From positions 3,670-67,669 of the forward strand of contig CAKNGB010000001.1 of the NCBI GenBank assembly GCA_930971385.1: a stretch of DNA of 64,000 bases. Reading direction: 5' to 3'. Shown here piece after piece: positions 18,044 to 18,286 of this stretch. The position numbers and the translations under genes were made by a program. Each line of letters begins with the position of its first letter. Position 1 is the stretch's first letter. Source of the DNA: an uncultured Clostridia bacterium. Its GTDB lineage: Bacteria; Bacillota; Clostridia; Christensenellales; UBA1242. The notes below the pieces were generated by a model that did no database searches, had not been told where the DNA came from, and saw only the letters and a program-made list of their open reading frames with translations.

Positions 18044-18120
18044 CGCGAGGTAGAGCAGCTCGGAAGCTCGTCGGGCTCATAACCCGAAGGTCGTAGGTTC
18101 AAATCCTACCCTCGCAACCA
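18044..18120 (+). tRNA. initiator tRNA-fMet (anticodon CAT)
   Basis: Cloverleaf folded by hand. C1-A72 mismatch, three consecutive G-C pairs in the anticodon stem (GGG/CCC), anticodon loop CTCATAA, T-arm GTAGG-TTCAAAT-CCTAC, encoded CCA. Confidence 0.9.
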
Positions 18121-18165
18121 AAATAGTTAAGGGTTGGTATTCAACTCTTTTTTTGTTAACTATTC

Positions 18166-18286
18166 CTAAGGATTTGAACCTACGGTTCACCCGTTCCGGC
18201 GGAGTGTTGCAGGGGCAACACTCGTTCGAGCGGTAAACAAGCGCACGGGCTTGTTTACTAAATCGCTCTCCCTACCCTCGCAACCG
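18166..18286 (-). pseudogene. tRNA-fMet-derived inverted, degenerate copy carrying two inserted hairpins (family B copy 1)
   Basis: 18169-18184 is the exact reverse complement of the tRNA T-arm (18092-18107, 16 nt). 18271-18285 equals the tRNA 3' end (18105-18119, 15 nt). On the minus strand GCGAGGGTAGGGAGAGCG resembles the tRNA 5' end GCGAGGTAGAGCAGC. The 3' acceptor strand is missing, so it cannot fold as a tRNA. Internal hairpins are 9 bp (18202-18223) and 10 bp (18233-18258). Confidence 0.5.

Follow-up and report, generated by a model that had tools for sequence, protein, structure and literature searches.

The window analyzed here is a stretch of 64,000 nucleotides (nt) from an uncultured Clostridia bacterium (positions 3,670 to 67,669 of contig CAKNGB010000001.1, assembly GCA_930971385.1), and our subject is the sequence at 18121-18286, which lies directly behind the initiator tRNA gene, tRNA-fMet. 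This sequence is a 166-nt insertion that has spared the tRNA. It consists of a terminator of its own, a T-arm copy in inverted orientation, a scaffold of ~90 nt with four helices and a direct copy of tRNA positions 61-75, and cores of the same family stand behind at least seven different tRNA species, with ends that are fitted to each. The explanation that we favor, and to which we would give an even chance, is that the stretch 18121-18286 represents one copy of a small non-autonomous insertion (~150-170 nt, no genes) that has its seat in the 3′ part of tRNA genes. The source genome (1.05 Mb in 13 contigs, 97% complete) was compared with a genus sample of gut Clostridia near Candidatus Caccovivens, a placement obtained by GyrB comparison. 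The genomes are metagenome-assembled genomes, in which repeats and tRNAs are frequently found at contig ends, and related genomes are not independent samples.

The insertion at the tRNA-fMet locus

The insertion is revealed by relatives whose site is empty. In two genomes of the same genus, G001 and G072 (97% and 95% complete), the 3′ end of tRNA-fMet runs straight into the trailer AATGAAAAAACTGCACTCT..., and this trailer is present in the window after the second tail copy, from 18286 on. The initial annotation had suggested that 18121-18286 might prove to be an insertion when aligned with related loci, and the alignment with both genomes leaves a clean gap of 166 nt. An ordinary conserved spacer, which the same annotation had named as the observation that would speak against its ideas, is not what the relatives show. 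Because the empty sites run from the tRNA end directly into the trailer, the terminator at 18129-18149 is borne by the element, and of the two tail copies the second is the original. The same trailer is present in G020 too, after a different module, and in G046 a tRNA that is 100% identical has only a terminator behind it and no insert. The genome G140, which is 93% identical through the region, carries the same element and, between the tRNA and the element, an extra unit, unrelated to it, that includes a terminator and a partial tRNA copy of 28 nt.

The tRNA that precedes the insertion is intact. ARAGORN predicts a tRNA-Met(CAT) with encoded CCA at 18044-18120 on the plus strand (64.3 bits with the Rfam tRNA model), and the C1xA72 mismatch and the three G-C pairs (GGG/CCC) of the anticodon stem, which are initiator features, can be read from its sequence. 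The insertion begins with a trailer of its own (18121-18168, plus strand), which is absent from the empty sites of G001 and G072 and holds an intrinsic terminator, a stem-loop at 18129-18149 with its T-run, inside a 9-bp inverted repeat (18122-18130 and 18156-18164). This repeat had been placed at a centre of symmetry; the repeat exists, but the symmetry is simply that of the terminator hairpin, around which it forms the outer stem. Next comes, on the minus strand at 18169-18184, an inverted copy of tRNA positions 48-63, the T-arm, which is the exact reverse complement of the 16 nt CGTAGGTTCAAATCCT at 18092-18107 on the plus strand. The far end of the insertion, at 18271-18285 on the plus strand, is a direct copy of the 15-nt tRNA 3′ end CCTACCCTCGCAACC (18105-18119), that is of positions 61-75, which comprise the 3′ strand of the T-stem, the 3′ strand of the acceptor stem, the discriminator and CC. 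Both repeats had been noticed in the initial annotation and both hold, each with 0.00 occurrences expected in shuffles of the window, and at the empty sites the tRNA 3′ end is the orthologue of the direct copy. The scaffold (18185-18275, minus strand; G000:C1:21854-21944) is matched with 75.6 bits by the covariance model R1 described below, and contains two perfect hairpins that had likewise been seen correctly, one of 9 bp at 18202-18223 and one of 10 bp at 18233-18258.

Behind the insertion stands the ancestral trailer of tRNA-fMet, a terminator module of weak fold (AAAAAACTGCACTCT...AAAAGCATCGCC...TTTTTTT; 18286-18356, plus strand) that the insertion has pushed downstream. This module is conserved and is found directly after tRNA-fMet in G001, G072, G020 and G003, and a core related to it follows tRNA-Glu in the window (23620-23670). 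On its 5′ side the tRNA gene has a sigma-70-type promoter at 17985-18014 on the plus strand, with TTGACA, an 18-nt spacer and TAGAAT (11 of 12 consensus positions).

One explanation put forward at the outset, that the region is a decayed convergent duplicate of tRNA-fMet, we now regard as extremely improbable. It was prompted by the minus strand, which starts like the 5′ end of a tRNA and has T-arm-like sequence. The likeness is real, but it is the automatic complement of the duplicated acceptor 3′ strand, and, as had been noted, the minus-strand copy has no acceptor 3′ strand after its T-arm copy. Searches of the minus strand with ARAGORN and Rfam (18121-18300; gathering threshold and E<=10) returned no tRNA, tmRNA or other family, and a tmRNA, a permuted tmRNA, a tRNA-Sec or a type-II tRNA on that strand was rejected on these negative searches and on the missing acceptor 3′ strand. 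Homologous cores also stand behind Gln, Asn, Arg, Trp and Leu tRNAs, which a duplicate of tRNA-fMet would not predict, and the Arg and Trp copies have no minus-strand T-stem and retain no T-arm hairpin there. The central helices vary freely and have loops of 4-6 nt, and there is no anticodon arm with a 7-nt loop among them.

A scaffold family with arms matched to the host tRNA

A BLAST search with the 180 nt downstream of the tRNA gave partial matches in four genomes of the same genus, often several per genome and in tandem. These loci are homologous elements of ~120 nt behind tRNA-Gln(TTG), tRNA-Gln(CTG), tRNA-Asn and tRNA-Leu; their hairpin sequences differ and the helices are compensated. 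The covariance model R1 describes the core only (91 positions, 31 pairs) and was built on the strand antisense to the tRNA; its E-values are rough. It matches 64 of 151 genus genomes (49 of the 102 of high quality), with one to seven copies each, and outside the genus it gives a single weak match in 146 genomes from 94 other genera of the order. A search of the source genome for further copies, which the initial annotation had proposed, was productive: there are three copies with this type of core (type A), behind tRNA-fMet (the present one), tRNA-Asn (C6) and tRNA-Leu(TAA), and all three thus stand behind tRNAs. No known RNA family in Rfam 15 matches the insert at the gathering threshold or at E<=10, and on this basis YrlA, ribozymes and other known RNAs were rejected. 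Full-text literature searches returned nothing relevant to the element.

The association of the core with tRNAs has a single polarity. A tRNA in the same orientation lies 34-236 nt upstream in 28 of 38 R1 matches (30 loci) and is Gln-TTG, Gln-CTG, fMet, Asn, Arg-ACG or Trp; the other ten matches lie at a contig edge or have no predicted tRNA, and wherever their flanks are readable these show tRNA-derived sequence. All copies with an upstream tRNA have one fixed orientation relative to it. Directly 3′ of the core is a copy of positions 61-76 of the host tRNA, exact over at least 12 nt in 22 of the 28 copies, which often extends into a copy of the tRNA trailer. The resulting direct repeats span 15-47 nt, which rules out a target-site duplication of fixed length. 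Upstream of the core most copies have an inverted copy of about positions 53-66, and in 19 of 28 copies this arm has an exact match of 12 nt or more. The arms follow the variants of the host tRNA, as seen with TTCAAAT versus TTCGAAT, with GCAGG in G068 and G156 and with GTTCGA in tRNA-Trp. The core itself starts on the plus strand with GTTCR, which corresponds to T-loop positions 53-57, and its A or G (GTTCGA for tRNA-Trp) also tracks the host tRNA. The core occupies the place of T-loop nucleotides 58-60 in a partial T-arm, and a crossover inside the T-loop is ruled out because the second copy lacks these bases.

Four Asn copies have a direct partial tRNA (~39-57) instead of the inverted arm, so that the core looks as if it had been inserted in the T-loop of a partial tRNA. 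Since this direct type can be derived from an arrangement like that of G086 by deletion between two GGTTCG repeats, we treat the inverted type as primary. Tandem arrays with periods of 148-160 nt are found in G023, G011, G112, G068 and G156. Two relatives, G007 and G151, carry the element within a tRNA operon (Gly-Arg-His-Gln-[element]-Lys), 24 nt before tRNA-Lys, and because of this position co-transcription of its plus strand is very likely there.

On the plus strand the window copy can be folded into P5 (TGAAC/GTTCA, 18175-18189), P4 (18188-18201), P3 (18202-18223) and P1 (18228-18232 with 18264-18268), the last of which encloses P2 (18233-18258). In P5, TGAAC of the inverted arm (18175-18179) pairs with GTTCA at 18185-18189. 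The Gln copies have an additional helix, formed by GGCAGG, with which the inverted arm starts, and CCTGCC, with which the tail copy starts; it encloses the entire fold, and the acceptor 3′ strand and NCCA stay single-stranded. In the window the closing helix consists of AGG/CCT only. Covariation was counted in 40 aligned copies, in an alignment that was fitted to model R1: 85% of cells are paired, both sides change in 21 of the 31 pairs, and 171 cells carry double changes as compared with 15-36 when the partners are slid by 1-3 columns. By helix, the paired cells amount to 96.7% in P2, 90% in P3, 86% in P4 and 65% in P1. G.U outnumbers A.C by 60 to 21 in favor of the tRNA-antisense strand; two sites dominate this excess and the remainder is 23 versus 8.

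A covarying fold beside a tRNA gene raises the possibility that the insert is a structured RNA that serves the host, an explanation that we consider unlikely though deserving of attention. The initial annotation had raised the idea of an antisense segment, transcribed together with the tRNA, that might sequester its T-arm. The RNA could be a plus-strand trailer, compactly folded, with T-stem sequence as its closing helix and an unpaired copy of the acceptor 3′ strand and NCC(A) at its end, or a minus-strand antisense RNA whose 5′ end would be able to pair with the last 15-16 nt of the tRNA; its role could lie in tRNA processing, stability or titration, or it could be a decoy. Such a function would agree with the strong covariation across species, with the persistence of the element in genomes that have no candidate mobilizing enzyme, with its place inside the tRNA operon of G007 and G151, and with arms kept identical to the tRNA, an identity that would result from selection for pairing as well. 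The G.U excess on the minus strand may point the same way. So may a promoter-like site on the minus strand at 18416-18387 (TTCTCA, an 18-nt spacer and TATAAT; 10 of 12 positions), which faces the element and is aimed at it and at the tRNA in antisense; beyond this site the minus strand has no gene for ~1.8 kb. However, the element is found in only ~42% of the genus genomes, at tRNA loci that change while the orthologous sites are empty. It usually lies beyond the terminator of the tRNA, neither strand has a promoter inside the repeat unit, and several unrelated modules follow the same layout, as described in the next section. The two sites behind the G.U excess also weaken the case, as at one of them A.C is not avoided, and the other, which P4 and P5 share, is complementary to T-loop base 57.

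Probable core exchange and the wider use of the layout

Pairwise core identities show that cores are related across tRNA species. The Asn core of G082 is 84% identical to the fMet core of G140 and 79% identical to that of G000, and at most 73% identical to other Asn cores. The Gln core of G103 is nearest to the Trp core of G046 (83% identity), the Asn core of G022 is nearest to Trp cores, and Arg cores are nearest to Gln cores. Within G006/G011, and again within G151, the copies behind Gln-TTG and Gln-CTG have hairpin sequences in common.

We propose that a unit made of positions 61-76, the trailer, the inverted arm and the core, either circular or tandemly duplicated, would recombine within the shared tRNA tail in the manner of a Campbell-type integration. 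Recombination of this kind in the tRNA tail would yield direct repeats in the observed range of 15-47 nt, tandem arrays and a preserved tRNA. The original tail (positions 61-75) and the original trailer have been moved to the far side of the element, which supplies a new terminator. Cores would be exchanged between tRNA loci, and for the arms the local tRNA would serve as template, or conversion would keep them identical to it. Such an element would most likely be selfish or neutral mosaic DNA.

The layout is also found with other cores and at other places in the tRNA. Behind tRNA-Leu(CAA) of the source genome (C1:159080-159431, minus strand) stand an inverted anticodon arm, a related core and then a direct copy of 46 nt that reaches from the anticodon stem to the 3′ end; the true terminator of this locus lies only beyond this second copy, and the whole is an anticodon-loop analogue of the fMet insert. 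The tRNA-Ser(GGA) locus (C2:66290-66632, minus strand) has an inverted T-loop, a core of a second type (B) and a tail copy of 20 nt. Besides this locus, type B (AGGAWTCGAAC GGGCG...hairpin...CGCCCC GGCGTGAWAGCGG...) is found at 23740-23840 of the window, and it holds a P2-like hairpin in the orientation opposite to type A; the window copy lies ~300 nt after tRNA-Glu and has no tail copy. At tRNA-Leu(TAA) the core lies in the anticodon loop of a nearly full pseudo-tRNA-Leu of a different sequence variant, and this difference from its functional neighbor suggests that the pseudo-tRNA may have been imported from another lineage. A further module, GGAAAAGGAACAAACAAAYGAATGGTAAG - hairpin - GAAATGAA..GCAGTTTGTGACGCA, lies directly upstream of partial tRNA copies at the tRNA-Leu(TAA) and tRNA-Asn loci of the same genome (C1:262100-262575, minus strand, and C6:68990-69484) and is also present at the Asn loci of G152 and G160.

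Among 30 tRNA-fMet loci of the genus, eight have a second tail copy within two mismatches, and diverged ones are found in others. At least four unrelated modules, or nearly none, are in use, and each of these arrangements has an inverted segment and, after it, a direct copy to position 76. The sparest case is G002, where an inverted segment from position 45 to 35 is followed by a 5-nt loop and a direct copy to position 76. Two tandem copies of tRNA-fMet, with ~230 nt of N-masked sequence between them, are found at G006:C1:144900-146100 (locus L080), and the second is followed by a module with attC-like symmetry (TTGAACC - long hairpin GATGACC...GGTCATC - TAA - GGTTCAAATCC...CCA). A tRNA-fMet that looked split in G006 proved to be an artefact of N-masking. 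A mirror image of the layout exists 5′ of tRNA-Lys and tRNA-Thr on two metagenome contigs (L183, 440-1010, and L190, 1000-1330). Its order is the leader with tRNA positions 1-19, a core of opposite orientation placed after the GG of the D-loop, a small hairpin, and the leader with the full tRNA. The small hairpin contains the reverse complement of positions 18-25, and in L183 the arrangement is tandem.

This breadth could be taken to mean that there is no dedicated mobility at all. Template switching during replication at the palindromic arms of tRNA genes could build local duplications and inverted duplications behind these genes. Generic mosaic hairpin modules of the intergenic DNA of gut Clostridia would then gather there, be homogenized by gene conversion and be spread by transformation with homologous recombination. 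We think this rather unlikely. It is favored by the presence of the layout with at least four unrelated modules and, in G002, with almost no module, by the sub-module P1-P2, which in metagenomes is mostly not linked to tRNAs and also occurs in phage, and by the Asn direct type, which follows from a G086-like arrangement by deletion between GGTTCG repeats. It does not explain why the junctions are fixed, after T-loop base 57/58 and before 61, with an inverted arm that always covers about 53-66, or why in the genus the full type-A core is found only behind tRNAs and in one orientation. The terminator of the insert also differs from that of the local trailer.

Possible movers and relation to known elements

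The source genome encodes four tyrosine recombinases, three of which lie in classical islands at tRNA genes. The island at the elongator tRNA-Met (C3:56485-67939, 11.4 kb) is flanked by a 16-nt repeat that corresponds exactly to positions 61-76. Those at tRNA-Gly(CCC) (C3:96355 to the contig end, continuing to C10:2368) and at tRNA-Lys(TTT) (C11:3168 to the contig end, continuing to C9:4617) each have an att repeat of ~45 nt that runs from the anticodon loop to the 3′ end. The att repeats of the islands are the same two types of block that are found in the mini-elements, 61-76 and anticodon loop to 3′ end. All three islands have paired arm-type direct repeats near both ends (of the type AAAGTTTAGTCA; for example AAAGTTTAGTCAAAAGTTTAGTCA), and the fMet mini-element has no such integrase-binding repeats. 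The suggestion of an element aimed at the 3′ end of the tRNA, for which the 15-nt repeat would be an att-like core, is borne out in part: the empty sites, the terminator that the insert brings and the block limits 61-76, which equal the att repeat of a resident island, agree with it, but what lies there is a conserved structured element and not a mere footprint, and no link to an integrase was found.

The resident islands offer another origin for the insert, namely a deletion remnant of an integrase island or prophage in tRNA-fMet, in which attL and attR would stand back-to-back, as in elements of the cis-mobilizable (CIME) kind, and the fold would be a left-over arm of attP. This is improbable in our view. 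The direct tail repeat, the empty site in relatives and a tRNA-proximal trailer supplied by the element are all expected of such a remnant, three live integrase islands reside in the same 1.05-Mb genome, one of them with a repeat equal to 61-76, and two have repeats from the anticodon loop to the 3′ end, like the mini-element at tRNA-Leu(CAA). Against it, the same ~90-nt core would have to be left over at seven or more tRNA targets and always with equal size. No intermediate with cargo is found among 38 copies, in which the distance from tRNA to core is always at most 236 nt; the islands have arm-type repeats and no scaffold; there is no co-occurrence with the island integrase family; and mirror-image copies occur at tRNA 5′ ends and D-loops.

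The mobile insertion that we favor has difficulties of its own, several of which concern the mover. The resident islands, with their arm-type repeats, carry no scaffold. The source genome, at 97% completeness, has no reverse transcriptase (PF00078), IS110 (PF01548), TnpB or serine recombinase. Y1 transposase (Y1_Tnp) is found in 17 of the 151 genus genomes, with an overlap with element carriers of 7 when 7.2 would be expected, and relatives of the island integrase, which is of phage type, are found in 56 of 151, with an overlap of 23 when 23.7 would be expected (overlaps tallied by hand from the genus-wide tables). Three genomes with several element copies (G006, G007 and G023) have no such integrase. 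The re-tailoring of the arms is unexplained, there is no sign of a recent burst, as the copies within the source genome are not near-identical, and classical integrases would not account for the mirror-image copies at tRNA 5′ ends. The covariation may in part be misleading, as in perfect hairpins with short loops it can come from template switches that correct palindromes and not from selection. Finally, the sub-module P1-P2 has a life outside tRNA contexts: among its 83 matches in gut and rumen metagenomes, 11 have an upstream tRNA on the same strand, 54 have none and 18 have insufficient flank. A phage contig (L167; IMGVR_UViG_3300031555_010792) carries P3 with the P1-P2 module at 2390-2475 (40.5 bits with R1), and the tRNA-derived flanks may therefore belong to the niche and not to the module. 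That contig is GC-rich and has no tRNA; the module lies in the gap between two large ORFs (open reading frames) at 611-2068 and 2547-4280, beside other hairpin modules. Scans of viral contigs gave this one partial scaffold, in a phage intergenic region, and no autonomous parent element.

Specific movers were rejected on the same data. These were a retron or a primer-binding site for reverse transcription at the tRNA 3′ end (no PF00078 match in the source genome), an IS110 bridge-RNA element (no PF01548 match there), a serine recombinase (none there), kinship with palindrome-associated (PATE) elements of IS200/IS605 or with REP/RAYT (Y1 transposase uncorrelated, no TnpB), and mobilization in trans by the resident integrase family (no co-occurrence in 151 genomes). 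A more radical reading, which we hold to be quite improbable, would make both arms functional guides. One arm is antisense to the T-arm and the other equals the tRNA tail, which is complementary to the opposite strand, and the two overlap on the 3′ strand of the T-stem. A folded single-stranded unit of ~150 nt, DNA or RNA, could then pair with both strands of a tRNA-gene loop, and a host or transient enzyme would insert it with the tRNA being rebuilt. The explanations considered here are not mutually exclusive.

tRNA genes are classic landing sites of large mobile elements, and the T-loop and 3′-end sublocations of integration in them were reportedly classified by Williams in 2002. The mini-element resembles the integrative elements that target tRNA genes (prophages, integrative and conjugative elements, islands, CIMEs) in its insertion in the 3′ part of the tRNA with the tRNA rebuilt from element-borne sequence, in the flanking direct repeat of the tail, in the empty sites of relatives, in tandem accretion and in repeat limits of 61-76, as in the resident integrase island. 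It differs in its small size (~150 nt), in the absence of integrase and cargo from all copies examined, in having, where those elements have arm-type repeats, an inverted T-arm and a multi-helix core that covaries, in using one core family for many tRNA species, in its mirror versions at 5′ ends and in the lack of co-occurrence with an integrase. A second resemblance is to mosaic repeats such as repetitive extragenic palindromes (REP) and bacterial interspersed mosaic elements (BIME), BOX, RUP/SPRITE, Correia/NEMIS and miniature inverted-repeat transposable elements (MITE), which are short, non-coding, hairpin-rich, modular and patchy in distribution and swap hairpin modules between copies; the reuse of a sub-module in other intergenic contexts and in phage is also of this kind. 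In contrast to these, the mini-element has only 1-7 copies per genome, is strictly linked to tRNAs and in one orientation within the genus, and has no terminal inverted repeats of its own, no short target duplication of fixed length and no link to a Y1/RAYT transposase, its ends being copies of the neighboring gene.

Two further systems are comparable in part. Integron attC sites and other folded single-strand substrates of recombination, such as the attP of CTX phage, are imperfect palindromes with outer arms paired around variable inner hairpins, with a possible strand bias of the fold and with gene-less units in arrays. The attC core consensus is GTTRRRY/RYYYAAC; unlike it, the mini-element has GTTCR and YGAAC, no IntI was identified, and the arms derive from the adjacent tRNA. 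The bridge or seek RNAs of IS110/IS1111 are a functional analogy, in that one arm is complementary to each target strand and the arms flank a short shared core (here 61-66). Their arms are 4-7 nt long; the arms of the mini-element are 14-19 nt long and can also be explained simply as products of integration, there is no donor-binding loop, and the source genome has no recombinase of the IS110 family. The closest known kinds are therefore the tRNA-integrating elements with their CIME derivatives and the mosaic repeats of BIME/BOX type, and the mini-element lacks defining features of each.

Several features are new to our knowledge. These are the exact junctions, in which the core replaces T-loop bases 58-60 and base 57 tracks the host; the proof of insertion from empty sites at tRNA-fMet; the way in which the direct type can be derived; the versions at the anticodon loop and, mirrored, at the 5′ side; the negative enzyme associations; and the finding that one sub-module lives outside tRNA contexts. 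If the arms did act as guides, they would point to a mechanism of programmable insertion, and there would be a class of gene-less, self-targeting elements that use the D-, anticodon- and T-loops of any tRNA, in several phyla. If the insert were an RNA, it would be new as a regulatory or decoy RNA linked to tRNAs. If our preferred explanation is true, such miniature riders, which leave the tRNA intact, bring a terminator and fit their arms to each tRNA, would add a new level to the genome dynamics of reduced gut bacteria. The element is also a frequent source of contig breaks and of mis-annotated "att scars" or pseudo-tRNAs. Even on an ordinary reading, it is a marker of strain-level variation in Caccovivens-like gut Clostridia and provides a concrete set of filled and empty sites.

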